A stretch of 64,000 bases of DNA from positions 6,636-70,635 of the forward strand of contig JAJDUP010000054.1 in the NCBI GenBank assembly GCA_022826565.1, in the 5' to 3' direction. The notes beneath the pieces are model-generated. The model did no database searches. It saw nothing but the letters and a program-made list of their open reading frames with translations, and had not been told where the DNA came from. The stretch is from Gemmatimonadota bacterium. GTDB taxonomy: Bacteria > Gemmatimonadota > Gemmatimonadetes > Longimicrobiales > Gaopeijiaceae. Shown here in pieces: positions 43,642 to 64,000 of the stretch (the first letter of the stretch is position 1; every line of letters starts with the position of its first letter). Made by a program: the position numbers and the translations under genes.

Positions 43642-43652
43642 CGCCCCGGCGC

Positions 43653-47204: not shown

Positions 47205-48950
47205 TTACGACGCCCCCACCGGATCCACCCGCACCGTCACGATATCCGTATCGTGGTACTTCTGGTGCCGCACCGACGTCGCGATGTGGCGCAGCAGGCG
47301 CAGCGAGAAGTCATGCTCCACGGGCACCTCCGTCACGCTGCCCCCGACGAAGGCCATGCGGTCTTCGATGTTGCCCTCACCCGCGGCGGCGAGGAATTCG
47401 AGCTCGGCCCCGCCCCCTTCGGCCCGGGCCGTCACCCGCAGGCGGCGCGTGCCCAGGGCATCGTCCTCCGCAATCTCGTCGAGGAGGACCAGCAGCGTCT
47501 CCTCGGCGGCGAGGCTCATGCGGTGGACCAGGTCGTCACCCAGACCCGAGCGCGCGCCGAACTCCTCCAGGAATGTCTGGATCTTCGGTTGCGCCCCGAC
47601 GTTCAGCTTGGTCTCCATGCGGCGGCGCCTGGGCCCGGTCAGCTCCATGAACGCCGACAGCAGGATCGCGATAAGCCCGCCCGAAGTCATTCCGTTCTCC
47701 AGCAGCTGCCCGGCCCAGCCGAAGTACTCCGACGGGATCTGGCCGCTCTGAAACCCCGCTCCGATCCAGAACGAGACGCCGATGATCGTGGCCTTGCGGT
47801 AGTCGATGCCGTCCTGGGTAACCATCTCCAGCCCCAGCACGAACAGTATCGCGATCAGCACGATGATGTAGGCGCCGACCACCGGATTGGGTATGGCGAG
47901 CAGCACCGCCGTCGCCTTGGGGAAGAAGGCGAGCGCGATGAAGGTCAGCCCGATGCAGACGCCCACCCGCCGGGCGGCGATCCCGGTGATCTCGACGATC
48001 GAGACGCTGTTCGAGTAGGTCGTGTTCGGGACGGTGGCGAGGAGGCCGGAGAGGAGGTTGCCCACCCCGTCGGCCGCCACCGCGCCCTGGACAGCACGGA
48101 AGTCGGTGGCCCGCCGCTTGCGCCATGACACCCGCTGGATCGCCATCCCGTCGCCGATCGTCTCGATGGCGCCGACGAGCGTGACGAAGATGAACGCGGG
48201 CAGCATCGCCCAGAACGCGGGACTCAGGCTCAGATCGAAGCCCGGCCAGCCGCCCGCCGGGACGCCGAACCACTGTGCGTCGCCCACGATGCCCATGTCG
48301 TAGATGCCGTACGCGGCCGCCACCAGACAGCCCCCGACGGCTCCGATGACCGACCCCCACAGCCGCAGGGCGCCCCTCGCCCGCAGCACGATCACGATGG
48401 TGATCACGATGGTCGCCAGGGCCGTGAGCGGAGCTGCCGCGGGGGCCGCACCCTCCGGCGCCTGGAAGAGGAGGTCGAAGCCGATGGGCATGACCGTGAC
48501 CGCGATCAGCATGATCACGGTGCCGGCCACCGTCGGCGTGATGATGCGCCTCAGCAGCGACAGGTGCGACGAGATCAGGAACTGGCAGAGCGACGAGGCC
48601 ACGATAAGGGTGGCCAGCAGCGCCGGGCCGCCCCGTTCGAGCGCCGCCACCGACACCGCGATGAAGACCCCCGACGTGCCCATGAGCAGGATGTACCCGG
48701 CCCCGATCCTGCCCGCGATCGGCCGCGCCTGGATCAGGGTCGAGATCCCGCAGACGATCAGGACGGCGAAGGCCGCCCATGTGAGGTAGCTCTCGCTGCC
48801 GCCGCCCGCGCGCACCACGATCGCCACCGTGATGACGATGCCCGCGATGTTCAGCAGTACGTACTGGAATGCGAGCCCGAACGATACGGGGTAGCTGGGC
48901 GACTCGTCGGCCTGGAAGCGGAGGCCCAGGCGCGTGTCGGGAGGGGTCAT
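47205..48950 (-). CDS. NCS2 (xanthine/uracil/vitamin C, SLC23-type) family permease with extra ~140-aa C-terminal cytoplasmic domain
   Basis: 581 aa. Multiple TM helices; family motifs AADGVGNLLSGLLATVPNTTYSNSVSIVEITGIAARR and AIPNPVVGAYIIVLIAILFVLG. Its ATG overlaps the aminotransferase stop (ATGA). Confidence 0.8.
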   Translation of the reverse strand: MTPPDTRLGLRFQADESPSYPVSFGLAFQYVLLNIAGIVITVAIVVRAGGGSESYLTWAAFAVLIVCGISTLIQARPIAGRIGAGYILLMGTSGVFIAVSVAALERGGPALLATLIVASSLCQFLISSHLSLLRRIITPTVAGTVIMLIAVTVMPIGFDLLFQAPEGAAPAAAPLTALATIVITIVIVLRARGALRLWGSVIGAVGGCLVAAAYGIYDMGIVGDAQWFGVPAGGWPGFDLSLSPAFWAMLPAFIFVTLVGAIETIGDGMAIQRVSWRKRRATDFRAVQGAVAADGVGNLLSGLLATVPNTTYSNSVSIVEITGIAARRVGVCIGLTFIALAFFPKATAVLLAIPNPVVGAYIIVLIAILFVLGLEMVTQDGIDYRKATIIGVSFWIGAGFQSGQIPSEYFGWAGQLLENGMTSGGLIAILLSAFMELTGPRRRRMETKLNVGAQPKIQTFLEEFGARSGLGDDLVHRMSLAAEETLLVLLDEIAEDDALGTRRLRVTARAEGGGAELEFLAAAGEGNIEDRMAFVGGSVTEVPVEHDFSLRLLRHIATSVRHQKYHDTDIVTVRVDPVGAS

Positions 48951-50317
48951 GGGTGGCGTCCGTACGGGGATCGGGATGGGCCGGCTGTGCTGCGGGCTCG
49001 CGGCGACGCGCTCTCGATGGCGGTCCCGTACCGCTCGAGGAACACCTCGAAAGCGGCGACCAGCCTGTCGCAGTCCTGGTCGTCGTGGGCAAGTGAGACC
49101 GACATGAAGCCGCGGCGCGCGATCCAGAACCCCGCGAGCAGCATCTCGAGGTGGAACAGATCGCGGGCGGCCTGCGGGGTCGCGGCGGTGTCGCCGTGGC
49201 AGCGCACGGGCGCCCGCTGAAAGTGCACCGTCATGATCGAACCGCGGCCCGTCACCAGGGCGGGCACATGCAGCCGCGCGGCGACGCCGTTCAGTGCATC
49301 GCGCAGGGCATCACCGCGGTCGTTCAACCGGCGGACGGTGGCGGGTGTCAGCACGTCTCGCAGTCCCGCGAGGCCAGCGGCCATCGTGAGCGCGTTGTTG
49401 TTGTGCGTGCCGGCATGGCTGAAATGATCCGGACGGCGCGGATCGAACCGGTCCATCAGCTCCGCGCGGCCGCCGAACGCGCCGAACGAGGCGCCGCCGC
49501 CGAGGTACTTGCCGAAGGTGGTCAGATCCGCATGGATGCCCAGCACTTCCTGGAGGCCGCCCGGCGCGAGGCGCGAGGTCTGCACTTCGTCGAAGATCAA
49601 CAGCGCGCCGCTGCGCTGCGTCGCGTCCCTGAGCGCGCCGAGGAACGCCCGCGTCCCGGGGATGCAACCGCCGCCCCCGAGCATGGGCTCGACCAGCACG
49701 CACGCGAGTCGGTCCGGCTGTTCCTCGATCATCGAGCGCGCCGCCTCCGCATCGTTGTATTGCCCGACGACCCACGGGAACGGAACATTGAGACGCCGAT
49801 CCGGCCCCGTGAATGTCAGTGGACCGCCATGGTACCCGCCGTCGAACACAAGCACCCCGCCGCGCCCGGTGACAGCGCGTGCGAGGCTGACCGCCATGAG
49901 GTTGGCCTCCGTCCCGGAGTTCGTGAACCGGACACGCTCGACGGAGGGAAAGCGCCCGCAGATCAGCTCCGCGAACCGCTGCTGGTTCGGCGTGGGCCCG
50001 CCGAGCGTGAGCCCGTCCTTCGCCGCCCCGGCGATCGCCGCCTGGATGGTCGGGTTGGAGTGCCCGTACAGGCCCGCCGTATGGTCATTCAGGAAATCGA
50101 CGTACTCGTGCCCGTCGAGATCGTACAGCCGGGCGCCCACGCCCCGGACGATCGTCACCGGGAAGGGCGCGTAATGGTTGACCGTGCGGGTGTCCGCGCC
50201 GGGAAGGAATCTCGTGGAACGCTCGAAGCTCGCTTCGCTCGCCGGATTGGCCGCCGCGTACCGGGTGGCCGCATCGGTGGCGAGCTCCTGCAGCGTTCGC
50301 GTCTGGACCGTTGTCAT
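48947..50317 (-). CDS. class-III (glutamate-1-semialdehyde aminomutase-like) PLP aminotransferase
   Basis: 456 aa. YDLDGHEYVDFLNDHTAGLYGHSNP, FTNSGTEANLMAV, LIFDEVQTSRLAPGG, PLP-lysine motif DLTTFGKYLGGG. Confidence 0.85.
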   Translation of the reverse strand: MTTVQTRTLQELATDAATRYAAANPASEASFERSTRFLPGADTRTVNHYAPFPVTIVRGVGARLYDLDGHEYVDFLNDHTAGLYGHSNPTIQAAIAGAAKDGLTLGGPTPNQQRFAELICGRFPSVERVRFTNSGTEANLMAVSLARAVTGRGGVLVFDGGYHGGPLTFTGPDRRLNVPFPWVVGQYNDAEAARSMIEEQPDRLACVLVEPMLGGGGCIPGTRAFLGALRDATQRSGALLIFDEVQTSRLAPGGLQEVLGIHADLTTFGKYLGGGASFGAFGGRAELMDRFDPRRPDHFSHAGTHNNNALTMAAGLAGLRDVLTPATVRRLNDRGDALRDALNGVAARLHVPALVTGRGSIMTVHFQRAPVRCHGDTAATPQAARDLFHLEMLLAGFWIARRGFMSVSLAHDDQDCDRLVAAFEVFLERYGTAIESASPRARSTAGPSRSPYGRHP

Positions 50318-50459
50318 GGGCGCACATCAATGAACGAGGGCGTGACGGGCGGCTTTGGGGAGACGGGGGATTATCGGTCCCATGCGGCGAGGATCGCAAG
50401 CCGGGAGCAGTTCCCGGGCCCCGGCATTCCTGCGACAGGTGCAATTGTGAAATATCTGC

Positions 50460-50488
50460 TTGACTTCGGTGAGGGGACCGCCTACCAT
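50460..50488 (+). promoter_or_regulatory. candidate sigma70-type promoter for the ACP gene
   Basis: TTGACT - 17 nt - TACCAT in the lower-GC divergent intergenic region, 60 nt upstream of ATG 50548. Confidence 0.3.
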
Positions 50489-50547
50489 TTGTGTCGTTGA
50501 CAAACAAGCGAGTTTTCCCGCACAACCAAAGACTGGAACCACAACCG

Positions 50548-50778
50548 ATGCATGGAACCGAGAGTCGTCTGAGAGCACTGATCGATGAACACCTGGCGCT
50601 CGATCATGAGCCGAGTCTGTCCGGAGGCTTCTCCGATTCGGGTATTTCCTCGATGGATGCAGTCGCATTCATGAGGATTGTGGAACGCGAGTTCAACGTG
50701 TCGATTCCGCCGGAGGACTGCGGGAAGATCGGGACATTTGGTGAGCTCGTCTCGCACCTCGACTCTCTGGCGGGCTGA
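50548..50778 (+). CDS. discrete acyl carrier protein
   Basis: 76 aa from ATG 50548 (the track ORF uses GTG 50491). FSDSGISSMDAVAFMRIVEREFNVSIPPEDCGKIGTFGELVSHL is colinear with ACP [32 protein letters not shown]; phosphopantetheine Ser lies in ISSMD. Confidence 0.75.
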   Translation: MHGTESRLRALIDEHLALDHEPSLSGGFSDSGISSMDAVAFMRIVEREFNVSIPPEDCGKIGTFGELVSHLDSLAG

Positions 50779-50824
50779 CGGCGCCAGTCTTTGACTCGTC
50801 CGGGCCGGGCGGCAGGTGTCCGGC

Positions 50825-53800
50825 TCACCGTAGTGGTTCGAACCAGTAGCGTTTGCGCTGGAACGGATAGCCGGGCACAGAGATCCGGCGTCGCGCTTCT
50901 CCCGCGAAAAGCCCGGCGAAGGAAACCGGGAGGCCTTCGGTGTACGCCTCCGCCACCCACTCTTCGAATGTGTCGGCTGCATGCTCCGTGCCGTTCGGCC
51001 AATCGTTGAGAGGTATGGGGCCTGACCCCGATCCGGGACTGATCTCGAGAACCAGATCGACATCGAGCGCCGCAAGCGCCTGGGCGGTGGGTCGGCGTGG
51101 GGCCTCCAACGGACGCAACTGCCCTTGCCAGTAGGCTGCATCGAGAATCTCCGTCGGGCTGCGCACTCGTCCAGTCCCCGGATTCACGATGGACAGCGAG
51201 GGTAACGAAAACTCGATCTCGGGGAACGGGGCTTCCACGCTATCCACACTTCGTGCGGCGGCCAGGCGAAGTCCGTCTTCCAGGCCAAACACCCCTGCGC
51301 TCCACGCCGCCGACAACGCGCTGATCCCGCGTCCCGACACCACCTGGGGCCGGATACCGACACTCGCCCAGAGCGCGGTAAGGGCGCACTCCAGCGCGAA
51401 GGCTGCCGGTTCCCGCCAGGCCGGATCGTCTTCGTCCGCGCTCGCACCGCTCTGGTCGAGCGTCACATCCAGCAGGGGAACGCCGCCAAGTTCGTCGCGC
51501 AGAACGCGGTCGCAGCGGTCAAGAACGGCCCGTACCACGGGCTCGGTCCGGTACAGATGCTTCGCCGTCTTCGCACGCGCGTTTCCTTCGCCCGCGTAGG
51601 AGAAGGCCACCTTCGGCGTCGCAGCGACCGCCCGTGCCGTCGCTGACGTGGCCGCCCTGTCCCCCGTTGAGATTGCATGCAACTGCTCGCGCAGCGAGTC
51701 GGCGTCACGAAATGCGAGAGCCGCCCGGTGCGTGAAGTGGTCGCGTCCTACGCTCGCCGTCCACGCCATGTCCGACAACAGGGAGTCCACAGAATCTCGC
51801 TCGGCCTGGAGATCGTGGCCGTGGGTGTCGAGCCAGGCGAGATACCGTCCCGCCAACTCGCGCAGCGCCTGGTCCGACTTGCCTGAAATCGGCAGGACGC
51901 GCGCGGTGCGTGGGTCGAAGGGGCCTGATGGAGGGGACAGTTTCGTCAGCGGCCCCGGCATTGCAATGTCGATGGTTCGTGGGGACCCGGCGGGTTGGCC
52001 CGAGTTGCCACTCGTTTGGGAGGGGTCATGGATCGGTCCGTAGCCCTCCACGACGACATGCGCGTTCGTGCCTGATATCCCGAATGCGCTCACGCCGGCA
52101 AGTGGCGTCCGATCCGCATGCCCTGGCCAGCGCGTTGCCTCCGACGTCACCTGCACCGGGAGCGCGTTCCAATCCACATGCTCGTTCGGGTTCCTGAAAT
52201 GGAGGTGCTTCGGGATCACGCCATGCTTCATTGACAGCATGATCTTGATCAGCCCCGCGATCCCCGCAGCCGACTCGAGGTGGCCGATGTTGGTCTTTAC
52301 GGAGCCGATCAGGAGTGGACGGTCCGCCTCGCGTCCCTCGCCGTAGACGGCGGCGGCCGCCTGCACCTCGATTGGATCCCCCAACGTGGATCCCCCTCCA
52401 TGGGCTTCCAGATAATCCACCTCTCCAGGCGCGACGCCCGCTCGATCGAGCGCGTCCCTGATCACGCGCTGCTGCGCTCGCCCGTTGGGGACCGTCGGTC
52501 CGGCGGTCGCCCCGTTCTGGTTCACCGCCGTGCCGCGAACCACTCCCCAGATCCGGTCACCGTCGGCCTCCGCTTCATGAAGCCGCTTGAGGACGATCAT
52601 CCCGCAACCCTCGCTCCGCACGGCCCCATCCGCCGAGGTGTCGAAGGTCTTGCACCGGCCCTCCGACGACAGCATCCCCAACTCGACCATTTCCCTGGTC
52701 AACCCGAGCGAAAAGACGGCATTCACGCCTCCGACCAGCGCCAGGTCCACTTCACCCTGGCGCAGGGCCGCTACGGCGTGGTGCACCGCGACCAGCGACG
52801 CCGCACAGTTGAGGACCACCGGCATCGTGGGCCCCATGATCCCCAGCTTGAAGGCGACCCCGCCGAGCGCCATGGAACTCGCGGTGCCGAGATAGTTGAG
52901 GTCCTGGCCGCCGGCCAGCATCATGAGGTCGCGGTACTCGCTGGTCGCGACGCCCGCGTAGACGCCCGTGCTGCTGCCCCTCAGCCTCTCCGGATCGATT
53001 CCCGCGTCCTCCAGCGCCCGCCAACTCGTTTCCAGGAGAAGCCGTTGCTGCGGATCCATCAGGCGCGTGCCGATCGGCGTCATGCCGAAGAAACGCGCGT
53101 CGAAACGGTCGATCCCTTCAACGAACCCACCCTGGCCCCAGGCGTTGGCCCCGGTCTCGGGGTCGCCCGCGATCCCGGCCCAGGCACCGCCATCCTGCCG
53201 CCCGTGCGTCACGGCATCGCGGCCGGCTTCGAGTTGTCTCCAGAACGTCTGCAGGTCCGGGGCGCCGGGGAATCGACAGGCCATGCCGACGATTGCGATC
53301 CCATCGTCCTTCCGAGTCAGCGCCGCTGGCGCGGTCGGCTCGGCCGTTGGCTCGGGGGCGGGCGTCGGCTCGGGGATGGGTGCCGAATCAGCGACGGATT
53401 CCGCGTCGCCGAGCGCGTCCACCAGATGACCGGCGAGATCGGTGATGGTCGGGTAGTCGAATACCAGCGTATTCGGCGCCGCGTACGTTTCGGAGAAAGC
53501 CCGGTTGAGACGGTTTCGCAGTTCGACCGCCATCAGGGAGTCCATCCCCAGGTCGAAGAATCCAACCGCGGGCGCCGGCGCCGAGGGTAGTCTCAGGACC
53601 GCCTGGACCTCTCCTTGCAAGAAGGACACAAGCCGACTCTCGCGCTCTGCCGGCAGTGTCGCAGCGAGCAATGCAAGCAGGTCGTCCGACGAGGACGCGC
53701 CGTCGTCATCCGCATCTACGATGAGCAGCTCCTCCAGCAGGGGTGGACGGTCTTCGAGGGACTCACCGAGAACCGGCCAGTCCACCGCCGCCACCACGGC

Positions 53801-56800
53801 GCCGGTCGCGTCCTCCCGCAACAGGCGCTCGAATGCCAGGAAACCCTGTTCCGGCGTGAACCAGCCGGTACCGGACGCCTCGCGCCGCCCGGCGATACGT
53901 TCACGCTGCTCTTCCGCCTCGCCCAGTCCCGACCAGGCGCCCCAGGCGATGGCTTGCGCGGGGAGCCCCAGCGCACGTCGGTGCGCGGCGAGCTGATCGA
54001 GGAAGGCGTTGGCCGCCGCATGGTTTGCCTGGCCCGGATTGCCAAGGACACCGGCTACGCTGGAGAACAGGCAGAAGATGTCCAGATCGCGTTCCAGCGT
54101 CGCCCTGTGAAGGTGCCAGGCGCCCAGCATCTTCGGCCACAGAACGGTCTCGAAGCTCTGCCAGCTCTGGTTGCCGAGGGCGGCGTCCGATAGCACGCCG
54201 ACACTGTGGATCACGCCGGCGAGCGGGGGCAGCGCCGCGTCGATCCGTTCCAGCATGGAATCGACAGCGCCCGTGTCCGTCACGTCCGCGATCGCGACTT
54301 CGATCCGGAAGCCACCGGCGCGCAGCGCCTCGATCGCTTCTTCCGCCGCCGCATCCGGAGCCCTGCGACCGTTCAGCACCACCGTCCCCGCGCCGCGCTC
54401 CGCCAGCCATTCGGCGAGGGCCAGACCAATGCCGCCCAGCCCGCCGGTCACGAGGTAGGTGCCATCCCGCCGCAGCCGCCCTCCCGCGATCGGAGGCGTG
54501 GTCAACACGATCTTGCCGATATGCCGCGCCGCGCGCATGTAGCCCATCGCAGCGCTCGTTTCGGCCATGGGCCAGATGGTGTGCCTGAGCGGCGAAAGCT
54601 CCCCCGCCTCGACGCGCGCCAGCACGTCCGTCAGGGCCGCGCCCGGCCCCGCCGGATCCTGCTCCTTCAGGGTGTAGAGATCGAGGATCGAATAGGCGAC
54701 ATCGGGCCGCAGCGCGGCCATCTCGTCCTCTGTCAGGATGTCCCGCCGGGCGAGCTCCACGAAGCGGCCGCCGCCTGCGAGGCAGGCGAGGCTGGCCTCG
54801 ATGAACCCCTCGCCAGTCAGGCTGTTCAGCACGACGTCGACCCCGGCGCCCTCCGTCGCGTCCAGAATGTCCTGGCCGAAAGCCGTCGAGCGGCTGTCGA
54901 GCACGTGCTCGACGCCGATCGAGCGGAGATAGTCTCGCTTGCCCGCACTCGCCGTGGCGAACACCTCCGCGCCCGCGGCCTGGGCCAACTGGATAGCCGA
55001 GAGCCCGACTCCGCCCGCCCCTGCGTGAATCAGCACCCGGTCCCCGACCTTGAGCCCCGCAAGCTCGTAGGACAGCACGCACGTTACGAAAACCGACGGG
55101 ATCGTGGCGAGCGCCGTCGCCGACGCGTTCGGCGGCGCCAGCGCCACCAATTCATGGCGCGTGACCACCTCCGGTCCGAAGGTGCCGAACGCGAATCCGG
55201 CCACGCGGTCGCCCACCGCCACTGTGGTTACATCCGAACCGACCTCGACGATGCGGCCGCAGAATTCCTCGCCGAGCATCCCCTCGTCCTCGACCAGGCC
55301 CATGGCCCGGAACACGTCCAGGAAATTGAGCCCGCAGGCGTCGACCGCGGCGCGCACCTCTTTCGGTTCCAGAGCACGCGGCGCCAGCGGTTGCACCCGC
55401 AGTGCCTCGATCGCCCCGCCCTCGCCGGGCGCCAGCACCCAATCCGCACCCTCCGGCAGAGCAAGGCGCTCCACACCGGCGCCCGAACGAACGAGCCGGG
55501 CCGCCTGCCGGCGCCCCCGGCGATGCGCGATGTGGTTCTCCGAATCGGGAAACAGCAAATCGTGCGCGAGGACTGCATGTGGTTCCACCGCTTCGGGATC
55601 GAGATCGAGCATCCGCGGCTGCAGCTGGGGTGCTTCACGCGCCACCACCTTGCCGAAGCCCCAAAGCGGCGCGCCGGCCAGTTGCCCGGTGCGTTCCCGT
55701 TCGAAGACCTGCGCGCCCCGGGTTACGAACCACAGGCCCTTCTCGGGTACGGCATCCGCGTCGGCGATGCCCTGCACCAGCGCCAAGGCGCTGGCCGTGG
55801 CCCGTTTTGCGTCCGCCGCGATGTCCTCGGTCGTCGCCTCCGCTCCGTGACCGTCCTGCGCGACGAGATGCACCGCGCCGGCGAAGGGCACGTCGGAAGG
55901 CAGGCCTTCGATAAGTGATCGCCACGACTCGCGCCGTTCCATTTCGATCGATGCCACGACGACCCCGGCCTCACTCTCGGCCACCGCCGCCGCGACCTCA
56001 GGATCGTCGCCCGCCAGGACCACCCGCTGGTTCTGCGCGGCCAGTTCTGCCGCCAGGCCCGCCGCGATGCCGCCCCGGTCGGCCGCCACGACCCAAACGC
56101 CCTCGGGCAAGGCGATCTCCGCCGGACCCTGCGCCACGATTACCCCCCGATCCGGCAGACCGGCCACTTCCTGCAGGTCCAGGCCGAGCACATCCGATTC
56201 GGCAAACCCTGTATCCGCGAGCGCCCGACGCCACACATCGGGCCCTGCGAGGGCGTGGTTCGAGCGGTAGCGGTCGGCAAAGCGCCACCATCCGTCCAAC
56301 TGTCCGAAGATCAGATCCATCCAGCCCCTGCCGCGCTGGTTTTCAAGCGCCACCAGCAGCCCCGACGGCGCGAGGAGCGCGCGGCAGTGGGCGAGCGTCT
56401 CGTCCAGATGGCGCGTGGCGTGCAGGACGTTGGCCGCGACCACCAGGTCGTAACCGTGGGCCTCGAACCCCTGCTCGATCGGATCCTTTTCGATGTCCAG
56501 CACCCGGTAGTCGATGGAGGCATCCCCGGTGCTGAAGCGCGCTTCCGCCTCGGCGAAAAAGCCCGCGGAGATGTCGGTGTACATGTAGTCGAACCGGCCT
56601 GCAGGAAGCTCGGGCAGGATGTATTCGGTCGCCGAGCCGATCCCCGCGCCCACCTCCAGCACGCGGATCCGCCGGCTCTCCGGCAACTCGTCAACGAGCG
56701 TCCGGAACACCTCTCCCAGCATCCGGTTCGCCGCCCTCCAGACCGCCGCCCGGCGGTAGAGATCGGCAGCCGTCGGCTCCGCATCGCCGAACAGCAGCGA

Positions 56801-59800
56801 CAGCGGATCCGCATCGCCACGAAGCACCTCGGGCAGTGCGCCGGCACAGCGCCGAAACAGCCCGATCTCGTTCGTCGCGTGCGGCAGGCGCGCCGCCACG
56901 TCGGTCAGAAACACTTCGGAATCGCTCGGCATTTGATCGGGCAAGGGCTCGTCGGCTCCGATCGTTACGATGAAACCCTCGTCCTGCGCCTTCAGCACGC
57001 CCGAACGGGCCAGTACCTCGAGCACGCGACGCAGCAGGTGCCCATGCTCGGGTAGAATCTCCAGGCGCTCGCGCAACTCTTCCGGATCGACCGTGGCTCC
57101 TGCCTTGCGTTCCCACCCCAGTGTTTCCAGAGCCGACAGCGCGTAGCACCACGACACCCGCTCCATCTCCTCCTGCAGGGTGGTCTCGTCTTCGACCCGC
57201 ACCCCCTCGGCGGCCAGATACCGCGAGAATGGCAGCGAGCGAGCCGCTGCGGCCGACGGACTCGGCAGGAAATCCGCCGCCGGCATGCCCGGGGGCAGGG
57301 CGCGGTCGCGCCACACCACCTCGTAGAGCAGTTCCTCCACCCCCTCCACCGCGGGGAGCAGCGCACTCCGTGTCGCCCGCTTCACCGTGTACCCATCGAG
57401 CGTGCCGATCGGGGATCCGCCCATGTCGCAGAGGGTGATGTCCGCGCTCAGCACCTCCGGCAGCTCGGCGCTCGCACGTTCCGGCGTCTCCCGCAGGCGG
57501 ACATGGCAGAGCAGCCGGTCCGGCAGCTGTTGCGGCACCGACAGCCGCTCCCACCCGAAGGGCAGATAGGTGACGTCCTCGTCGGATCCGAACGCCTCCC
57601 GGGCCGCACCCATCACCTGAAAGCAACCGTCCAGCAGGAGTGGATGAAACGCCAACCCGCCGCCGTCGGTGGATGCCGGCAGGGAAACCTCGCCCAGTGC
57701 TTCGCCCGGCGCGGCCCAAAGCGCCGCCAATGTGCGGAATGAGGGGCCGAGATCGATCCCGACGTCAGCCTTGGCACGGTAATAGGCCGCGAGATCCACC
57801 GGCGCCAGATCGGCCCTGAGCTGTGCCAGGTCCAGCGGCGCGGCGACTTCCGACAGATCCGCACCGACCCCTGTCGGGACTCGGCCTTCCGCGTGCAGCG
57901 TCCATTCTTCGTCGCGGGCATCCCTGCTCAGTATCCGGACTCGGCGTGACCCGTCCTCTTCGGCGCGGTTCAGCAGCAGCTGAAGCCGACGACCTTCTTC
58001 CTCGCCCGGGTCCGCTTCGTCCCTCTCCGCGAAGACAAGGGCGCTCTGCATCTGGAAGTCCTCGACGACGGCCGGGCCGGGGTTCTCGGCGGTACCGGCC
58101 GATGCCGCCATGGCGCCATAGAGCGCCCCGGGCACAACCACGCGATCGAACACGCGGTGGTCGTCGAGCCATGCAGGGTCGGAGGGGAACAGCTCGGTGT
58201 CGAAGCTGATCTCGCCGCTGGCGGACTCGTGCCGGCTGCCGAGGAGCGGGTGATCGGCACTCGAGCGCCTCCGCCGGGGTGCGTCGATCCAGTGGCGGTC
58301 GCGGCGGAAGGGATAGCCCGGCACCGAGATCCTGCGCCGTGACTCGCCGGCAAAGAGCCCGTCGAACCGTACCGGCAGCCCCGCCTCGTACGCTCCAGCG
58401 ACCGCCGCGAAGAAGGCGTCTTCCGCCTCCGTCGCCGAGACATTGCGTCCGGGCCGTTTGAGGCTCGACAGCGTGACGGGCGGCGCGGGACTCCCGGGCG
58501 AATCCGGCCAGGCGAGCGTGGTCATGGGCCCGAGCACCGAGTGCGGACCGATCTCCACGACCGCGCCCACCCCCAGTTCCGCCAAGGTCCCGACGCAGGC
58601 GCGGAACGCCACCGGCGCGCGCATCTGCCGCCGCCAGTATGCCGCATCCAGCGCCTCGTCCGGACCGACCAGCCGCCCGCTGAGATTGCTGACGAATGGA
58701 AGCGACGGTTTCGCGAAGGCCAGCCGCGAAAGGGCTTCTTCCAGATCGTCCAGCGCCGGCTCGATCATGGCGCTGTGGTAGGCGGGACTCTTCCGCAGCC
58801 GCGCTACCCGAGTCCCGGCCGCCTCCAGGCGCTCGAGGATCGAGCCGACCTCGGCCGCCGGACCGCTGATGACCTGGTGCGCGCCATTGTCGGCGGCGAT
58901 ACAGAGGCCGATGCCGCGTGAGGCCGCATTGTGCTCGTCCAGCGCCTCCGCGACGAGGGCGGCCGGCGCGAACACCGCCGCCATCGCGCCTTCGCCGGGC
59001 AGGGCGCCGACCAGCTCGCCTCGCACCGCGGCCAGGCGCAAGCCGTCCTCCAGGCCGAACACGCCCGCGGTGTGCGCCGCCGCGATCTCGCCCAGGCTGT
59101 GACCCAGCACCACCTGCGGCCGGATGCCGACGCTCGACCAGAGCGCCGCAAGTGCGCATTCGAGCGCGTAGATCGCCGGCTGCTTCCACCGCGGATCGTC
59201 CAGGTCGCCCGCGGCAGCGGAACGGCCGAACATCACGTCGAGCAGCGAAGCATCACGTTCTTCCCTGAGCACTTCGTCGCACCGGTCGAGGACCGCCCGC
59301 ACCACCGCCTCACTTGCGTAGAGGCCCGCGCCCATGCCGGGCCACTGGCTGGCCTGCCCCCCGTAGGCGAACGCCACGGTCGCTGCCTTGCGAGATTCCG
59401 GCGTCTCATCCCCATCGGCGATCTTTCGCAAAGCTTCGCACAACGACTCGGCGTCGCGGAACACCACGCCGGTCCGGTGGTCGAAGTGGGTCCGTCCCAC
59501 ACTTGCCGTCCACGCCATGTCGGCGAGAGGTGGGTCACCGGCACCGTTGTCGGCAGAAGCCTTCCCGGCCCCCTCCCCGACCCAATCGAGATACCGCCGC
59601 GCCGACTCGCGCAGCGCTTCTTCGGACCTGCCGGAAAGGGGCAGGATGCGTGTCACACGGGCGGAGAGGTCTGCCGACCGCGGTGCGGTCAGTGGCCCGC
59701 CATCCGCGCTCTTCTCCGACGGCGAAACGGCGACCGGCAACGCCGGGCCGACGGGCCAACGGCGGCCGGCCGTGTGCCCATCCCCGAGAGTGCCACCGGC

Positions 59801-61111
59801 CGCCTCGTGGCCTTCCAGCAACACGTGAGCATTCGTCCCCGACCACCCGAACCCACTCACCCCCGCCCGCGGTGGTCGGCCGGCACGGAGCGGCCACTTC
59901 ATCCGGTCATCCGTCACCCGCAGGGGAATCCGATCCCAGTCTATCTGCGGGCTCGGGTTGTGGAAGTGCAGGTGCTTCGGGATCGTCCCCCGCCCGATCG
60001 AAAGGACGGCCTTGATCACGCCTGCCGCGCCCGCCGCGGCCTCCAGGTGGCCGATGTTCGTTTTCACCGACCCGATCAGGACGGGGTGGTCCGGGTCGCG
60101 ACCCCTGCCGTACGCCGCCGCCGTGGCGCGCGCCTCGATGGGGTCCCCGACTTCCGTTCCCGTCCCGTGCGCCTCCACGTAGTCCACATCGGAGGGCCGG
60201 AGCCCGGCCCGCAGAAGCGCGTCCTCGATGCACCGTTCCTGCGCCTCCTGGCTCGGCACCGTCAGGCCCGGGGTCGCGCCGTCCTGGTTCACAGCGGTGC
60301 TGCGGATCACGGCCCAGATACGGTCGCCGTCCGCCTCGGCCTCGCTCAGCCGCTTCAGGACCAGGATGCCGCACCCCTCCCCTCGCACGTAGCCGTTCGC
60401 ACCTGCGTCGAAGGTGGCGCACCGTCCATCCGGCGACAGCATCCCGGCGTTCGCGCGCATCTCGAAGAGTTGGGCCGACAGGATCACATGAACGCCTCCC
60501 GCCAGCGCCATGTCCGCCTCTCGCCGCTGCAGCCCGGACACCGCCTGGTGGATCGCCACCAGCGATGAGGAGCATGCGGTGTCGAGGGCCATCGCCGGCC
60601 CGTTCAGCCCCAGGGCGAAGGCAACCCGTCCGATGGCGGTGTTGAAGGACGTGCCCGTTACCGAGTAGAGGCTTGCGGCCGGCTCCGTCGGCCGTCCCGC
60701 GTCGAGGACCAGCGCCCGGTAGTCGTAGTTGCTGATGCCCGCGTACACACCCGTGCGGCTGCCCTTCAGCCGATCGGGATCGATCCCGGCATCCTCGAGC
60801 GCCTGCCAGCTCGTCTCGAGCATCATGCGCTGCTGTGGATCCAGCCGCTGGGCCTCGACCGGGGAGATGCGGAAAAACGAGGCGTCGAATTCGTCAAGCC
60901 GGTCGAGGAAGCCGGCGTACCGGCAGCCCCTGGCGACCTTCTCGTCGGAAAAGAGCTGTCCCGCGCGCCCGACTCCGGATCCCGGAACCCCCTCGGTGAC
61001 GGCGTTTACGCCGGCTTCGAGCAGATCCCAGAACTCGGGGACACCGGGTGCCCCGGGGAAACGGCAGGCCATGCCGACAATCGCGATGGGCTCCGCGTCA
61101 TGGCGGGACAT
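50825..61111 (-). CDS. type I polyketide synthase, two modules: KS-AT-DH-cMT-ER-KR-ACP-KS-AT(degraded)
   Basis: AAGGAGGTGA 5 nt before ATG 61111 (the track uses GTG 61129). Approximate domain spans on the + strand follow. KS1 59810-61093 (DTACSSS, EAHGTGT, NIGHLE). AT1 58415-59377 (GHSLGE). DH 57380-58258 (HRVFDRVVVP, LPFGW, LDGCFQ). cMT 56210-56812 (VLEVGAGIGS). ER 54500-55462 (LIHAGAGGVG). KR 53900-54460 (YLVTGGLGGIG). ACP 53420-53647 (FFDLGMDSL). KS2 52040-53305 (NCAASLVA, EAHGGGS, NIGHLE). AT remnant 50828-51610. Confidence 0.95.
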   Translation of the reverse strand: MSRHDAEPIAIVGMACRFPGAPGVPEFWDLLEAGVNAVTEGVPGSGVGRAGQLFSDEKVARGCRYAGFLDRLDEFDASFFRISPVEAQRLDPQQRMMLETSWQALEDAGIDPDRLKGSRTGVYAGISNYDYRALVLDAGRPTEPAASLYSVTGTSFNTAIGRVAFALGLNGPAMALDTACSSSLVAIHQAVSGLQRREADMALAGGVHVILSAQLFEMRANAGMLSPDGRCATFDAGANGYVRGEGCGILVLKRLSEAEADGDRIWAVIRSTAVNQDGATPGLTVPSQEAQERCIEDALLRAGLRPSDVDYVEAHGTGTEVGDPIEARATAAAYGRGRDPDHPVLIGSVKTNIGHLEAAAGAAGVIKAVLSIGRGTIPKHLHFHNPSPQIDWDRIPLRVTDDRMKWPLRAGRPPRAGVSGFGWSGTNAHVLLEGHEAAGGTLGDGHTAGRRWPVGPALPVAVSPSEKSADGGPLTAPRSADLSARVTRILPLSGRSEEALRESARRYLDWVGEGAGKASADNGAGDPPLADMAWTASVGRTHFDHRTGVVFRDAESLCEALRKIADGDETPESRKAATVAFAYGGQASQWPGMGAGLYASEAVVRAVLDRCDEVLREERDASLLDVMFGRSAAAGDLDDPRWKQPAIYALECALAALWSSVGIRPQVVLGHSLGEIAAAHTAGVFGLEDGLRLAAVRGELVGALPGEGAMAAVFAPAALVAEALDEHNAASRGIGLCIAADNGAHQVISGPAAEVGSILERLEAAGTRVARLRKSPAYHSAMIEPALDDLEEALSRLAFAKPSLPFVSNLSGRLVGPDEALDAAYWRRQMRAPVAFRACVGTLAELGVGAVVEIGPHSVLGPMTTLAWPDSPGSPAPPVTLSSLKRPGRNVSATEAEDAFFAAVAGAYEAGLPVRFDGLFAGESRRRISVPGYPFRRDRHWIDAPRRRRSSADHPLLGSRHESASGEISFDTELFPSDPAWLDDHRVFDRVVVPGALYGAMAASAGTAENPGPAVVEDFQMQSALVFAERDEADPGEEEGRRLQLLLNRAEEDGSRRVRILSRDARDEEWTLHAEGRVPTGVGADLSEVAAPLDLAQLRADLAPVDLAAYYRAKADVGIDLGPSFRTLAALWAAPGEALGEVSLPASTDGGGLAFHPLLLDGCFQVMGAAREAFGSDEDVTYLPFGWERLSVPQQLPDRLLCHVRLRETPERASAELPEVLSADITLCDMGGSPIGTLDGYTVKRATRSALLPAVEGVEELLYEVVWRDRALPPGMPAADFLPSPSAAAARSLPFSRYLAAEGVRVEDETTLQEEMERVSWCYALSALETLGWERKAGATVDPEELRERLEILPEHGHLLRRVLEVLARSGVLKAQDEGFIVTIGADEPLPDQMPSDSEVFLTDVAARLPHATNEIGLFRRCAGALPEVLRGDADPLSLLFGDAEPTAADLYRRAAVWRAANRMLGEVFRTLVDELPESRRIRVLEVGAGIGSATEYILPELPAGRFDYMYTDISAGFFAEAEARFSTGDASIDYRVLDIEKDPIEQGFEAHGYDLVVAANVLHATRHLDETLAHCRALLAPSGLLVALENQRGRGWMDLIFGQLDGWWRFADRYRSNHALAGPDVWRRALADTGFAESDVLGLDLQEVAGLPDRGVIVAQGPAEIALPEGVWVVAADRGGIAAGLAAELAAQNQRVVLAGDDPEVAAAVAESEAGVVVASIEMERRESWRSLIEGLPSDVPFAGAVHLVAQDGHGAEATTEDIAADAKRATASALALVQGIADADAVPEKGLWFVTRGAQVFERERTGQLAGAPLWGFGKVVAREAPQLQPRMLDLDPEAVEPHAVLAHDLLFPDSENHIAHRRGRRQAARLVRSGAGVERLALPEGADWVLAPGEGGAIEALRVQPLAPRALEPKEVRAAVDACGLNFLDVFRAMGLVEDEGMLGEEFCGRIVEVGSDVTTVAVGDRVAGFAFGTFGPEVVTRHELVALAPPNASATALATIPSVFVTCVLSYELAGLKVGDRVLIHAGAGGVGLSAIQLAQAAGAEVFATASAGKRDYLRSIGVEHVLDSRSTAFGQDILDATEGAGVDVVLNSLTGEGFIEASLACLAGGGRFVELARRDILTEDEMAALRPDVAYSILDLYTLKEQDPAGPGAALTDVLARVEAGELSPLRHTIWPMAETSAAMGYMRAARHIGKIVLTTPPIAGGRLRRDGTYLVTGGLGGIGLALAEWLAERGAGTVVLNGRRAPDAAAEEAIEALRAGGFRIEVAIADVTDTGAVDSMLERIDAALPPLAGVIHSVGVLSDAALGNQSWQSFETVLWPKMLGAWHLHRATLERDLDIFCLFSSVAGVLGNPGQANHAAANAFLDQLAAHRRALGLPAQAIAWGAWSGLGEAEEQRERIAGRREASGTGWFTPEQGFLAFERLLREDATGAVVAAVDWPVLGESLEDRPPLLEELLIVDADDDGASSSDDLLALLAATLPAERESRLVSFLQGEVQAVLRLPSAPAPAVGFFDLGMDSLMAVELRNRLNRAFSETYAAPNTLVFDYPTITDLAGHLVDALGDAESVADSAPIPEPTPAPEPTAEPTAPAALTRKDDGIAIVGMACRFPGAPDLQTFWRQLEAGRDAVTHGRQDGGAWAGIAGDPETGANAWGQGGFVEGIDRFDARFFGMTPIGTRLMDPQQRLLLETSWRALEDAGIDPERLRGSSTGVYAGVATSEYRDLMMLAGGQDLNYLGTASSMALGGVAFKLGIMGPTMPVVLNCAASLVAVHHAVAALRQGEVDLALVGGVNAVFSLGLTREMVELGMLSSEGRCKTFDTSADGAVRSEGCGMIVLKRLHEAEADGDRIWGVVRGTAVNQNGATAGPTVPNGRAQQRVIRDALDRAGVAPGEVDYLEAHGGGSTLGDPIEVQAAAAVYGEGREADRPLLIGSVKTNIGHLESAAGIAGLIKIMLSMKHGVIPKHLHFRNPNEHVDWNALPVQVTSEATRWPGHADRTPLAGVSAFGISGTNAHVVVEGYGPIHDPSQTSGNSGQPAGSPRTIDIAMPGPLTKLSPPSGPFDPRTARVLPISGKSDQALRELAGRYLAWLDTHGHDLQAERDSVDSLLSDMAWTASVGRDHFTHRAALAFRDADSLREQLHAISTGDRAATSATARAVAATPKVAFSYAGEGNARAKTAKHLYRTEPVVRAVLDRCDRVLRDELGGVPLLDVTLDQSGASADEDDPAWREPAAFALECALTALWASVGIRPQVVSGRGISALSAAWSAGVFGLEDGLRLAAARSVDSVEAPFPEIEFSLPSLSIVNPGTGRVRSPTEILDAAYWQGQLRPLEAPRRPTAQALAALDVDLVLEISPGSGSGPIPLNDWPNGTEHAADTFEEWVAEAYTEGLPVSFAGLFAGEARRRISVPGYPFQRKRYWFEPLR

Positions 61112-61135
61112 TGTCACCTCCTTCGCCACAGGCCG

Positions 61136-63499
61136 TCACCACGAAAGCGCCTTCGAGAATTTCACCGAGAATGCCCGCCCCGAGGACAACGGCGTACGTG
61201 GAATCATGTTCTGGTCCCGCTCCGTGTGAAGGCCCTCGTTGTATACAAGCCAGAGATCTGTGCCTTCGCTGAAGTGATAACGCATGCGTGTGTTGATGCT
61301 GGTGAGGTCGTCCACGCCGTTGTACTGGGTGTAAGTGCTCAGAGAAAGATGGGTGTCCAGCGCCAACTCCACCTTCAGTTGCGCCAAATGCGTCGTGGTT
61401 GCCAGGCCGCGCTCGGGGAATTCGATCCGGTTGATGGAGTATGCCATCCCGAGCTCCAGATGCCGAGAGACATTCCACACGGGACCGGCCGATGCACCGA
61501 TCCGGCTTCCGTCGTAGAAGGTGCCGGCTGAAGTCGTGAACCTGCCGCGCAAATCATCGCTGCGGGACAGCGTGAAATTGGCCGCAACCTCGTGGAACCA
61601 GTATTCACCCGCCGCGACTTGCACATCGGCAATGGGGAACGGGTCGCGCACGCTCTCGAACTGCGACCTGACACCCACATCGAGCCTGGCTCCGCCCTTG
61701 AACTGGACCTCTGCTTTGGGATAGATCTCCCTCGATTCCGGCGTCCCGTCCGAATTGCGGGTGAACTGCCTGGCGGTCAGCCGCACGCCCTGCCTGCGAA
61801 ACATCGCGCTGGCGTCCATATACTCGCCGTAAGCGAATTCCAGGCCGCCAAGGGTGAAGCCCGTGCGCCGCTGGAATCCGAGGCCGGGCCTGTAGTCGGA
61901 TCCCACCCGGACGGCATCGGCAGAGTAGGTGAATCCCTCATCGCGCCGCCGCTCCCAGCGGGCCCGCATCAGTCCGGTCTCGAAGCCGGTGGCGTCCGTC
62001 GTCGCCTCGTCGAAACTCTGCGCCCATTGCAGCAGGGCATACTCGTCGCCGACCACCCGCACCGATGCGTCCAGTCCATACGCGACGTTGTCCCGGCCGT
62101 GCGAACCCAATCGGCTGGTAACCATCGCGCCGACGGTGGAGTAAGGGTTCAGCACCTGCTGGCGCAGCCGCAGCACGCCCATGTTCTCGGAAGAGAGGCT
62201 GCCATGCGCCCCGGTCTGCATGTTCAGGAGTCCGTAGTCGGTGCCCCCGATCCGTCCGACCGCGCGCACGCCGCCGTAGATCTTCACGATCTCGCCCTCG
62301 TGAAGCCCGATCTGCCGGCTGTGGAATAGCCGGTTGAAGGGCCCGCCGGTGTTGAAGTCGAAGGTAGCCGAGCGCTCCTGGAAGAACTGGCGCTTCTCTG
62401 GAGTGAACAGCGGAAAGCGCTCGATGTTGATCTGGGCGCTGTCAGCCTCCACCTGTGCGAAATCGGTGTTGGCGGTGAGGTTCAGCGCCAGGCGGGAGGT
62501 GGGAGAATACTTGATGTCGAGTCCCACTTCACGGGTGGCGTCCTGCTCGGCATCCCACACCGAATGCGGGCCTCGGTGGCCATCCGCGAGTTTCGGGGTC
62601 CGGCGCACGCCTGCCAGCACGTAGGGCATCGTGTAGACGGGGGTCTGCTGTCGGACGTTCCGGAGGACGATGCGCTGAGCCTGAGAGGGCTTCACGAACG
62701 CCACCCCTCCCCAACCTGGATCAATGTCCGGAAAGAGGTGCCGCTCGTCCTTGCGCGCGATCATCCGGTAGATGATCAGGCCCATCGTCACTTCTTCGTC
62801 CAGCACCTGGAATCCCAGTGTGGAGAAGGGAATCCGAAACTCGGCGAACCAGCCTTCGTCGGTACGGCTGGTTGCCACATCCCAATACGAGTTCCAGTCG
62901 GAATTCATGGGCAGTCCGCCGCCGACGGTAATCTGGGCATCGTTGTAGACCGTGCGATCCACGCGCGTCCCTGCCGGATTCGTCAGGAACATGACTGCAG
63001 TTTCATAGTCGTTGTAGCTGTCGACGATGACAGCAAGGGCATCGTCGCCGCTGTACCGATCACGGTAGAGAGTGTTGGCGCGGATCCCCTCCGGATCGGA
63101 ATCGAACAAGCGGCCAGACACGTAGAGGAAGCGGTCATCGTGGACGATACGAACTTCGCTGGGCTCCGTGAAGGGGCCATGGTACGTGGGGGCGAACACT
63201 ATCATCGGGACGGGCTCCACGGCCTCCCATGCCGCCTCGTCCACGATCCCGTCCAACCTGATGGGCCCCGAGATTCGAGGAATCGTCATGGGGATGGTCC
63301 GGGAGTCACCCGCCGGCCGGTCGGTTTCGGCCTGCGGAACGTGCCCCCACAGGGGTGACGGCAAGAGGAAAGCCGTCTTGAGGGCGCATGACACGAGAAT
63401 TGGGAGAAAAACCAGGCGGGGCCCTCTCGCACGGGAGGTCGTGGAGGTGGAGCTGGCGTCGCCCGTGCCCGTCCTGGTACAAGAACTCATGGCAAACAT
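61136..63499 (-). CDS. DUF5916 / CBM9-like domain protein, paralogue of 33942..36227
   Basis: 787 aa. ISGPIRLDGIVDEAAWEAVEPVPMIVFAPTYHGPFTEPSEVRIVHDDRFLYVSGRLFDS...DALAVIVDSYNDYETAVMFLTNPAGTRVD. The stop is 24 nt upstream of the PKS start on the same strand. Confidence 0.75.
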   Translation of the reverse strand: MFAMSSCTRTGTGDASSTSTTSRARGPRLVFLPILVSCALKTAFLLPSPLWGHVPQAETDRPAGDSRTIPMTIPRISGPIRLDGIVDEAAWEAVEPVPMIVFAPTYHGPFTEPSEVRIVHDDRFLYVSGRLFDSDPEGIRANTLYRDRYSGDDALAVIVDSYNDYETAVMFLTNPAGTRVDRTVYNDAQITVGGGLPMNSDWNSYWDVATSRTDEGWFAEFRIPFSTLGFQVLDEEVTMGLIIYRMIARKDERHLFPDIDPGWGGVAFVKPSQAQRIVLRNVRQQTPVYTMPYVLAGVRRTPKLADGHRGPHSVWDAEQDATREVGLDIKYSPTSRLALNLTANTDFAQVEADSAQINIERFPLFTPEKRQFFQERSATFDFNTGGPFNRLFHSRQIGLHEGEIVKIYGGVRAVGRIGGTDYGLLNMQTGAHGSLSSENMGVLRLRQQVLNPYSTVGAMVTSRLGSHGRDNVAYGLDASVRVVGDEYALLQWAQSFDEATTDATGFETGLMRARWERRRDEGFTYSADAVRVGSDYRPGLGFQRRTGFTLGGLEFAYGEYMDASAMFRRQGVRLTARQFTRNSDGTPESREIYPKAEVQFKGGARLDVGVRSQFESVRDPFPIADVQVAAGEYWFHEVAANFTLSRSDDLRGRFTTSAGTFYDGSRIGASAGPVWNVSRHLELGMAYSINRIEFPERGLATTTHLAQLKVELALDTHLSLSTYTQYNGVDDLTSINTRMRYHFSEGTDLWLVYNEGLHTERDQNMIPRTPLSSGRAFSVKFSKALSW

Positions 63500-63595: not shown

Positions 63596-64000
63596 CTATC
63601 CCACCGGGTCAACCCGCACGGTCACCACGTCGATGTCCTCGTACTTGTGGTGTTGCACCGAGGTCGCCAGGTGCCGCAGGAGCCGCAGCGAGAATTCGTG
63701 CTCCTCCGTGGCGTCGACCGCGTGCGTGCCGATCACTGCCAGGTGATCCTCGATGTTGCCCTCGCTGCCCGCGGCCAGGAACTCCAGCTCCGCGCCTCCC
63801 GATTCGGTTCGCGCAGTCAGCCGCAATCGGCGCTTGCCGGTCGCTTCGGCACCCTCGCCCTCCTGCGCTCCCTCCCCGATCAGGAGCAGGAGCGTCTCTT
63901 CGGCGGCGTGCGCCAACCGGCCCGCCGTCGCGCCCCCCAACTCCCGCCGGCCCGCAAAACCCTCCAGGAACCGCTGGATCTCCGGCAGCGACTCCACCCG
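63596..64000 (-). CDS. C-terminal end of a second permease-type protein sharing the 47205..47627 C-terminal domain; the 5' part lies beyond the right window edge
   Basis: The frame is open to the window edge. ...IQRFLEGFAGRRELGG...AAEETLLLLIGE...RRLRLTARTESGGAELEFLAAGSEGNIED...EHEFSLRLLRHLATSVQHHKYEDIDVVTVRVDPVG is colinear with the tail of the NCS2 permease at 47205..48950. The transporter part itself is not visible. Confidence 0.6.
   Translation of the reverse strand, partial: RVESLPEIQRFLEGFAGRRELGGATAGRLAHAAEETLLLLIGEGAQEGEGAEATGKRRLRLTARTESGGAELEFLAAGSEGNIEDHLAVIGTHAVDATEEHEFSLRLLRHLATSVQHHKYEDIDVVTVRVDPVG

Follow-up and report, generated by a model that had tools for sequence, protein, structure and literature searches.

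The window analysed here, a 64,000-nt stretch of contig JAJDUP010000054.1 from a Gemmatimonadota bacterium, carries one large type I polyketide synthase (PKS) gene whose product ends in a second ketosynthase-acyltransferase (KS-AT) pair. The question raised by this locus is what the pair does and how the chain leaves the protein. A first-pass annotation, made from the sequence alone, described a fully reducing, C-methylating module followed by a lone KS-AT remnant. We consider that the whole is best explained as a Sup-type locus in which a methylating and reducing module 1 would feed the second KS (KS2) and a discrete acyl carrier protein (ACP2), and we put the probability of this explanation at about 0.7.

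The open reading frame (ORF) of the PKS is 3434 amino acids (aa) long from a GTG codon at 61129 and 3428 aa long from the ATG at 61111, which is the start picked by the gene caller on an identical public contig. Pfam gives the domain string KS1-AT1-DH-cMT-ER-KR-ACP1-KS2-AT0, where DH is a dehydratase, cMT a C-methyltransferase, ER an enoylreductase, KR a ketoreductase and AT0 the second, defective AT. All matches are far above the curated cut-offs: KS at aa 13-390, AT at 587-866, DH at 960-1257, methyltransferase at 1491-1592, ER at 1922-2209, KR at 2223-2400 and PP-binding at 2504-2569, followed by a second KS and a second, partial Acyl_transf_1. The protein ends after the post-AT linker PGYPFQRKRYW, and no thioesterase (TE), reductase (R) or condensation (C) domain was found by Pfam within the ORF. 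The gene is intact and probably functional. As shown in Table 1, the ORF, the quoted motifs and the domain order of the first-pass annotation are borne out, every domain having been recovered by Pfam, as is its statement that no release domain is fused. Its comparison of module 1 with mycocerosic acid synthase (MAS) and the highly reducing PKSs (HR-PKSs) also holds, the best solved-structure match being MAS (9d2y, E 4e-263), and the host does come from a poorly studied lineage, as a Gemmatimonadota sponge symbiont.

Table 1. Features of the PKS locus, in window coordinates.
Feature	Position	Strand	Basis and remarks
Type I PKS ORF, very probably SupA-type	50825..61129	-	ORF list, translation, Pfam
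KS1	59810..61093, aa 13-440	-	Pfam; Cys-His-His intact
AT1	58532..59371, aa 587-866	-	Pfam; GHSLGE and PAYH, malonyl-like
DH	57359..58252, aa 960-1257	-	Pfam PKS_DH_N and PS-DH; HxxxDxxxxP, DGCFQ
cMT core	56333..56704, aa 1476-1599	-	Pfam Methyltransf_12/25/11/23; LEVGAGIGS
ER	54503..55366, aa 1922-2209	-	Pfam ADH_N, ADH_zinc_N, ADH_zinc_N_2; HAGAGGVG
KR	53930..54463, aa 2223-2400	-	Pfam KR; His at the catalytic Tyr position (GQANHAAAN)
ACP1	53423..53620, aa 2504-2569	-	Pfam PP-binding; LGMDSLM
KS2	52022..53314, aa ~2606-3036	-	LNCAAS, EAHGGGS, NIGHLE; KS2-AT0 52% identical to KS1-AT1
KS-AT linker, AT0 (GRGIS, small subdomain deleted) and post-AT linker	50828..51907	-	
ACP2, 76 aa, motif DSGISSMD	50548..50778	+	Family HMM E 1.1e-29; Pfam PP-binding
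HemL-like class III aminotransferase	48947..50317	-	Pfam and NCBIfam, below the HemL cut-offs
NCS2-type permease copy 2, SupE-like, with C-terminal extension	47205..48950	-	Pfam Xan_ur_permease; NCBIfam ncs2/pbuX below cut-off
DUF5916/CBM9-like protein	61136..63499	-	Pfam; 6-24 nt upstream of the PKS start, same strand
Permease copy 1, 3' part, runs off the window	63596..64000	-	Permease HMM E 4.5e-45

The layout had been called uncommon in bacterial assembly lines, which the relatives contradict. A profile of the AT0 region, run against a single genome for each species, matched at least 600 stretches, 559 of which were confirmed, so that species-representative genomes hold at least 559 relatives, nearly all in metagenome-assembled genomes (MAGs) from sponges. 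The best 80, nearly all from marine-sponge MAGs, span more than 10 phyla, and the hosts include Gemmatimonadota, Chloroflexota, Latescibacterota, Alpha- and Gammaproteobacteria, Acidobacteriota, Nitrospirales, Dadabacteria, Binatia, Acidimicrobiia and others. Among these 80 are bins named SB06xx, RHO, COS, APA, jk18x and p16x as well as Ca. Palauibacter irciniicola; the jk18x and p16x names mark MAGs from Caribbean Ircinia (PMC9531527). A permease encoded in the window shares 88-94% identity with proteins from sponge Gemmatimonadota MAGs and ~65% with those of Ca. Palauibacter, and the best 120 homologues in the permease search are from Gemmatimonadota. Over 10,487 bases the window also matches, at 100% identity, an ENA contig with the label KELL22-1_SAMN22237336, which, from the label alone, we take to belong to the Ircinia study of Kelly et al. 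2022.

Sup clusters (supA-E) were reportedly described from sponge metagenomes by Fieseler et al. in 2007 (AEM 73:2144) and by Hochmuth et al. in 2010. Sup is a small type I PKS resembling fatty acid synthase (FAS); it is dominant in sponge microbiomes and spread over many phyla, and a methyl-branched fatty acid has been proposed as its product (PMC4245539, PMC9426513); in sponge MAGs of several phyla, SUP clusters were found to be 'independent of bacterial taxonomy' (PMC9426513). SupE of the published sup cluster is annotated as a permease (PMC3908369), and the citing literature calls Sup 'monomodular'. The only PKS gene of the locus studied here is small, FAS-like and of type I and includes a cMT domain (Pfam; the 54 full-length relatives are alike), and its family occurs widely in sponge symbionts across phyla, as seen in the best 80 loci. 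As to the accessory genes supB-E, two permease copies and a discrete ACP are present, and a hydrolase and a phosphopantetheinyl transferase (PPTase) are absent from the window. Membership of the locus in the Sup family, in a sponge-associated Gemmatimonadota bacterium, is in our view very probable. SupA itself presumably also ends in KS-AT, a point that we treat only as a lead.

For the full-length comparison we used 55 sequences, namely the window PKS and 54 homologues extracted as ORFs from genome loci. The homologues have a median length of 3425 aa, the same layout and 47-79% identity to the window PKS. In the protein database, PKS homologues occur only as fragments of up to 1461 aa, and most genome loci have a single ~3425-aa ORF; on two contigs, L001 (2380-12577) and L002 (3754-13927), the PKS was called as two adjacent or overlapping genes. 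The fragments are likely due to assembly frameshifts or to a database length limit.

The C-terminal pair is the part on which the interpretation turns. KS2-AT0 and KS1-AT1 share 52% identity over 710 residues, so KS2-AT0 arose by internal duplication. In a neighbour-joining tree, KS1 and KS2 were not cleanly separated because of a misaligned outlier (L080), and a nearest-neighbour test was used instead; in the joint alignment, 106 of the 108 KS domains had their nearest neighbour among domains of the same type, which dates the duplication to before the family spread. KS2 has its Cys (Cys2775 in the window) in 55/55 full-length proteins and its two His residues in 51/55 and 54/55, and the mean pairwise identity of KS2 (0.656, 62 invariant columns) is close to that of KS1 (0.691, 68 invariant columns).

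The AT that follows KS2 is in another state. AT0 of the window has GRGIS in place of GHSLG, and ~88 residues corresponding to AT1 aa 704-791 are deleted, that is, the small subdomain bearing the specificity motif. The 'Ser' position of AT0 is occupied by Gly in 40 proteins, Asp in 8, Ser in 2 and Glu in 1, with a gap in 4 (n=55). The N-terminal half of AT0 has a mean identity of 0.578 and 0 invariant columns, against 0.724 and 28 invariant columns for AT1; over the AT0 region as a whole the identity is 0.48-0.58, again with no invariant column. When the C-terminal 835 aa of the PKS were used as the query of a database search, 118 of the best 120 matches had the same lesion (GxGxGE for GHSxGE, with the same deletion), and all of them kept the KS triad. 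An AlphaFold model of KS2-AT0 was mediocre (pLDDT 68, pTM 0.59), and Foldseek with this low-confidence model returned similarity to KS-AT didomains at a low TM-score. Judged by these residue patterns, KS2 is catalytically intact and under purifying selection, and AT0 has been kept only as a scaffold. The didomain is a conserved feature of the family and very probably a working part, not a leftover. A canonical bimodular cis-AT line has an active AT and a fused ACP in each module; here AT0 is without its Ser and small subdomain, and ACP2 is encoded by a separate gene.

That 76-aa discrete ACP gene, beside the PKS gene, had been overlooked in the first-pass inventory. Its product scores 37.7 bits with Pfam PP-binding (cut-off 20.8) and carries the family-conserved motif GvSS.D.VAF. 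The gene is convergent with the PKS gene, 46 nt separating the two stop codons, and a promoter-like site lies ahead of it at 50460-50488. BLASTP found no similarity between ACP2 and ACP1, and the hidden Markov model (HMM) of ACP2 did not match ACP1; ACP2 is a distinct kind of ACP. Its GC content is 57% and its GC at third codon positions (GC3) is 0.66, and the GC3 of the surrounding genes is about 0.82-0.93.

To see which genes recur beside the PKS, flanking ORFs were clustered in the best 80 of the at least 559 related loci; many loci are incomplete, and the counts are lower bounds. ACP2 homologues adjoin the PKS in at least 59 of the 80, an alpha/beta hydrolase of ~300 aa (Abhydrolase_6) is found in at least 56, an NCS2-type permease of ~577 aa in at least 33 and an Sfp-type PPTase in at least 29. 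The commonest order is PKS, ACP, PPTase and hydrolase, then the permease on the opposite strand. The hydrolase family has the consensus motifs FHSxS, LFDPP and THFLQLE, which plausibly supply a Ser/Asp/His triad. The recurrent set of five genes fits supA-E, and we infer the identities of SupB-D from it. The release chemistry is not as obscure as had been supposed, since in relatives the PKS gene normally has these four partner genes beside it. The earlier statement that no release enzyme lies nearby is right for this 64-kb window, where the HMMs of the family hydrolase and PPTase have no match anywhere, and wrong for the family. The family partners present at this locus are only ACP2 and the two permease copies, and release and ACP activation must therefore rely on genes elsewhere in the genome.

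Every catalytic residue of module 1 is conserved, the KR excepted. Each of KS1 Cys/His/His, AT1 Ser, DH His and Asp, and ACP1 Ser is found in 55/55 full-length proteins. The D variant of the DH motif HxxxGxxxxP, as seen in the window, occurs in 8/55 proteins; the cMT region has a mean pairwise identity of 0.718. The AT1 motifs across the family are GHS[LVI]GE with xAFH or PAYH. The HAFH/YASH rule ties this AT motif to malonyl versus methylmalonyl specificity, and AT1 is predicted to be malonyl-specific. With AT1 motifs of the malonyl type, the methyl branch should come from S-adenosylmethionine (SAM) via the cMT.

One catalytic position of the KR is unexpected. In the alignment, the catalytic Tyr of the short-chain dehydrogenase/reductase (SDR) motif YxxxN, which is PGQGAYAAAN in MAS, is replaced in the window by His at aa 2370 (PGQANHAAAN). 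This His is found in 54/55 full-length proteins (the window and 53/54 relatives) and in 53/53 KR-bearing database fragments. The Ser and Lys positions are retained, and no other domain of the PKS is as conserved as the KR (mean identity 0.753, 68/218 columns invariant). To our knowledge, the catalytic Tyr is otherwise universal in SDR enzymes. Either the His acts as proton donor in place of the Tyr, or the KR serves for something other than standard ketoreduction; the first is favoured because the catalytic residues of DH and ER are conserved.

We propose the following scheme. Module 1 would take in malonyl units, add a methyl branch from SAM and reduce the chain fully, working in the manner of MAS or animal FAS for a single round or several, to give an alpha-methylated, fully reduced acyl-ACP1. 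The methyl-branched acyl chain would pass from ACP1 to KS2, which is the likely recipient because it sits where the KS of a next module sits, and KS2 would condense it with malonyl on the discrete ACP2. With AT0 dead, the loading of ACP2 would have to be done in trans by AT1 or the cell's FabD. KS2-AT0 and ACP2 would in this way form a split, non-reducing second module, yielding a beta-keto, methyl-branched acyl-ACP. The beta-ketoacyl-ACP2 might then be released by the discrete alpha/beta hydrolase, or be elongated by the housekeeping type II fatty-acid enzymes, and further type II elongation would leave the methyl group mid-chain, as the Sup hypothesis requires. The product is likely a methyl-branched (mid-chain-branched) lipid, as long proposed for Sup. 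The split-module mechanism made up of KS2-AT0 and ACP2 is put forward tentatively, at somewhat less than even odds. We think it rather unlikely that two bolder statements hold together, namely that KS2-AT0/ACP2 is a dedicated hand-off device from type I to type II synthesis and that the KR works through a catalytic His. In mycobacteria, mtFabH bridges FAS-I to FAS-II. Neither the hand-off nor the KR His was found described for Sup in the accessible literature, which does not include the original Sup papers.

Several points weigh against the scheme. ACP2 is taken as the partner of KS2 from adjacency, and it is convergent with the PKS gene, has a lower GC3 (0.66) than its neighbours and bears no similarity to ACP1. 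The family hydrolase and PPTase, as said, have no HMM match in the 64-kb window. The change of Tyr to His in the KR could mean unusual or absent ketoreduction, which would alter the product. Sup membership is argued from distribution, architecture and the permease, the window PKS being set beside SupA by description and not by sequence. Finally, no product was found for any family member in the accessible literature.

The same genes can be read in the reverse order. ACP2 and KS2 would then prime the synthase, KS2 condensing a starter acyl group, either drawn from primary metabolism or formed on ACP2, and handing it to module 1 for elongation, methylation and reduction; it would suit this order that no loading module precedes KS1, that ACP2 is unrelated to ACP1 and of a type of its own, and that KS2 is catalytically intact. 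We consider it improbable, since co-linearity puts KS2 right after ACP1, the normal place for a chain-receiving KS, since MAS-like enzymes are primed directly on the KS by acyl-CoA without a helper (textbook knowledge), and since no starter-activating enzyme, be it a fatty acyl-AMP ligase (FAAL) or a CoA ligase, is conserved in the 80 loci.

It is also quite improbable that KS2 is a release or terminal catalyst acting on a polyketide secondary metabolite, for example by a final Claisen reaction leading to a beta-keto acid or methyl ketone or by a pyrone-type cyclisation with the hydrolase. The 80 loci have no recurrent tailoring enzymes and show only ACP, PPTase, hydrolase and permease; the closest structural relative, MAS, is a lipid synthase, and the published Sup hypothesis is one of branched fatty acids. 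In favour of such terminal chemistry, the beta-keto group would persist after a second module that has no reducing domains, the family conserves a discrete hydrolase, and the type I PKS clusters of sponge Palauibacterales are listed as unknown in antiSMASH-type surveys (PMC10469786).

The reading of the first-pass annotation, in which the C-terminal KS-AT is a decaying remnant and a single iterative HR-PKS/MAS-like module releases its product straight from ACP1, has become highly improbable. An AT without its active-site Ser, with ~88 residues gone and 0 invariant columns, and the lack of an ACP fused after the pair are what it would predict. However, KS2 has kept its Cys in 55/55 proteins, its His residues in 51/55 and 54/55 and 62 invariant columns, and over more than 10 phyla its identity (0.656) is little below that of KS1 (0.691); the pair is orthologous family-wide, the AT lesion is identical and fixed across the family instead of varying by member, and a discrete ACP co-occurs in at least 59/80 loci.

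The surroundings of the PKS gene in the window are reduced and rearranged. Permease copy 1, the DUF5916 gene and the PKS gene form a co-oriented string, followed by the convergent ACP2 gene. Beyond ACP2 come, on the PKS strand, the HemL-like aminotransferase gene and permease copy 2, which overlap by 4 nt, and an amidohydrolase gene on the other strand. Two paralogous permease copies thus flank the PKS gene. Copy 1 is 585 aa long in full on the identical contig L081, and permease homologues next to the PKS in other loci are 42-52% identical. The C-terminal ~180 aa of copy 2 (47205-47750, minus strand) gave a faint HATPase_c_2 match (E 0.13), of the anti-sigma-factor kinase-like kind, and several permease homologues carry PF13581 in precomputed annotation. 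On the published swf fosmid, a SupE-like permease gene is flanked by genes for anti-anti-sigma factors. Two DUF5916/CBM9-like paralogues are present in the window (33942-36227, plus strand, and 61136-63499, minus strand), the latter apparently co-transcribed with the PKS gene. Identical contigs L081/L082 aside, the other PKS loci gave one weak match only to DUF5916.

In a close relative (L083/L084; DNA identity of the flanks 84-87%), permease 1 is followed by a 0.86-kb stretch and then by the aminotransferase, permease 2 and the amidohydrolase, and neither PKS nor ACP is present. The 0.86-kb stretch (L083 5169-6030) holds a Steroid_dh/DUF1295 gene, and two integrase genes lie near this site in the relative. 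Because the relative is without PKS and ACP, the 13.3 kb from 50319 to 63591 (DUF5916, PKS and ACP2) are a variable segment, and the PKS gene appears to sit in a variable or mobile region.

This relative also bears on the weakest alternative, that in this lineage the HemL-like aminotransferase acts on the beta-ketoacyl-ACP2 formed by KS2 to give a beta-amino acyl chain and that the locus makes an amino-lipid, much as the aminotransferase domains of the iturin and mycosubtilin synthetases make beta-amino acyl chains: the enzyme is of the glutamate-1-semialdehyde type yet below the HemL cut-offs and its gene diverges from ACP2 across 230 nt with promoter-like sites on both strands, but the idea is hardly credible, since the gene is absent from other PKS loci, belongs by its 4-nt overlap with the permease start to the permease operon, and stands in the relative in an aminotransferase-permease-amidohydrolase block (84% nucleotide identity, flanks) without PKS or ACP. 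The aminotransferase was likewise rejected as a PKS tailoring enzyme, being kept with the permease backbone in the PKS-less relative.

Elsewhere in the window, the alpha/beta hydrolase (Abhydrolase_1) gene at 25519-26556 was considered as a source of the release enzyme and rejected, since the family HMM does not match it and its context marks it as MetX-like. A SAM riboswitch (26647-26766, minus strand; Rfam RF00162, 72.9 bits) lies upstream of this gene, and a gene for a Cys/Met pyridoxal phosphate (PLP) enzyme (24308-25522) adjoins it; together they resemble an operon for methionine biosynthesis that has nothing to do with the PKS. No RNA element was found by Rfam in the PKS locus itself. 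A FecR-type anti-sigma factor gene (43653-44690, minus strand) is followed by genes for two TonB-dependent receptors with CarboxypepD_reg (40954-43776 and 37277-40015, minus strand), and the genes at 37277-44690 are an uptake system typical of FCB-group bacteria. A tRNA gene is located at 13938-14012 (minus strand; Rfam RF00005, 75.4 bits).

Sup-type PKS genes are the most frequently amplified PKS genes in sponges of high microbial abundance, and they have been the proposed source of the mid-chain-branched fatty acids of sponges since 2007. In the accessible literature neither a product nor a mechanism has been demonstrated for Sup. The picture of the family is now sharper and can be tested: a catalytically intact KS2 on a dead AT scaffold, a KR with His for Tyr family-wide, a discrete ACP, hydrolase and PPTase that as a rule adjoin the PKS, and a linked NCS2-type permease. 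Genome-mining surveys should dereplicate PKSs with this domain layout as Sup instead of reporting them as new orphan assembly lines. If true, the hand-off device and the His-based KR would be new enzymology in one of the most abundant PKS families of sponge microbiomes.

Among characterised systems, no MIBiG cluster with the same gene order emerged, and Sup is itself without biochemical characterisation in the accessible literature. Like MAS, the window PKS has a fully reducing KS-AT-DH-ER-KR-ACP module, is likely to make methyl-branched lipids and has no fused thioesterase; the MAS match is best over ER-KR-ACP, with E 1e-45 for the KR region. MAS is off-loaded by the acyltransferase PapA5. 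Unlike the window PKS, MAS takes its branches from methylmalonyl-CoA and has a normal KR Tyr, no cMT and no second KS-AT, and AT1 of the window shows GHSLGE with PAYH (xAFH or PAYH across the family) and not the GHSQG and YASH of a methylmalonyl AT. The fungal HR-PKSs (LovB/LovF, Fum1) share the order KS-AT-DH-cMT-ER-KR-ACP and a SAM-derived methyl branch. They differ in being eukaryotic and iterative with programmed domain use and in having neither a terminal KS-AT0 nor a discrete ACP, whereas the window gene is bacterial, in a Gemmatimonadota context, and has the extra KS-AT0. The match to LovB (7cpx) is weaker (E 4e-180), lies mostly in the KS and is best over aa 8-441. The chain made by LovB is off-loaded by LovG, a free-standing alpha/beta hydrolase whose role parallels what the conserved hydrolase of the family may suggest for Sup-type release.

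Sponge symbionts also have Swf (SwfA-C), a second sponge-specific family of FAS-like PKSs, which is mono-modular with the order KS-AT-DH-ER-KR-ACP (PMC3908369). A SupE-like permease lies beside swfA on a Plakortis fosmid (PMC3908369). Swf differs from the window PKS in lacking a methyltransferase domain and a second KS-AT, and in its partners, the reductase/sulfotransferase SwfB and the radical SAM protein SwfC. With Sup the locus shares a small FAS-like PKS, sponge symbionts of many phyla as hosts and a permease in the cluster. It differs from Sup in having no hydrolase and no PPTase here, two permeases, DUF5916, an unrelated aminotransferase, a convergent ACP and a Gemmatimonadota host. On this comparison, the locus is a further member of a family known since 2007, in a reduced and rearranged context, and not a new kind of system.

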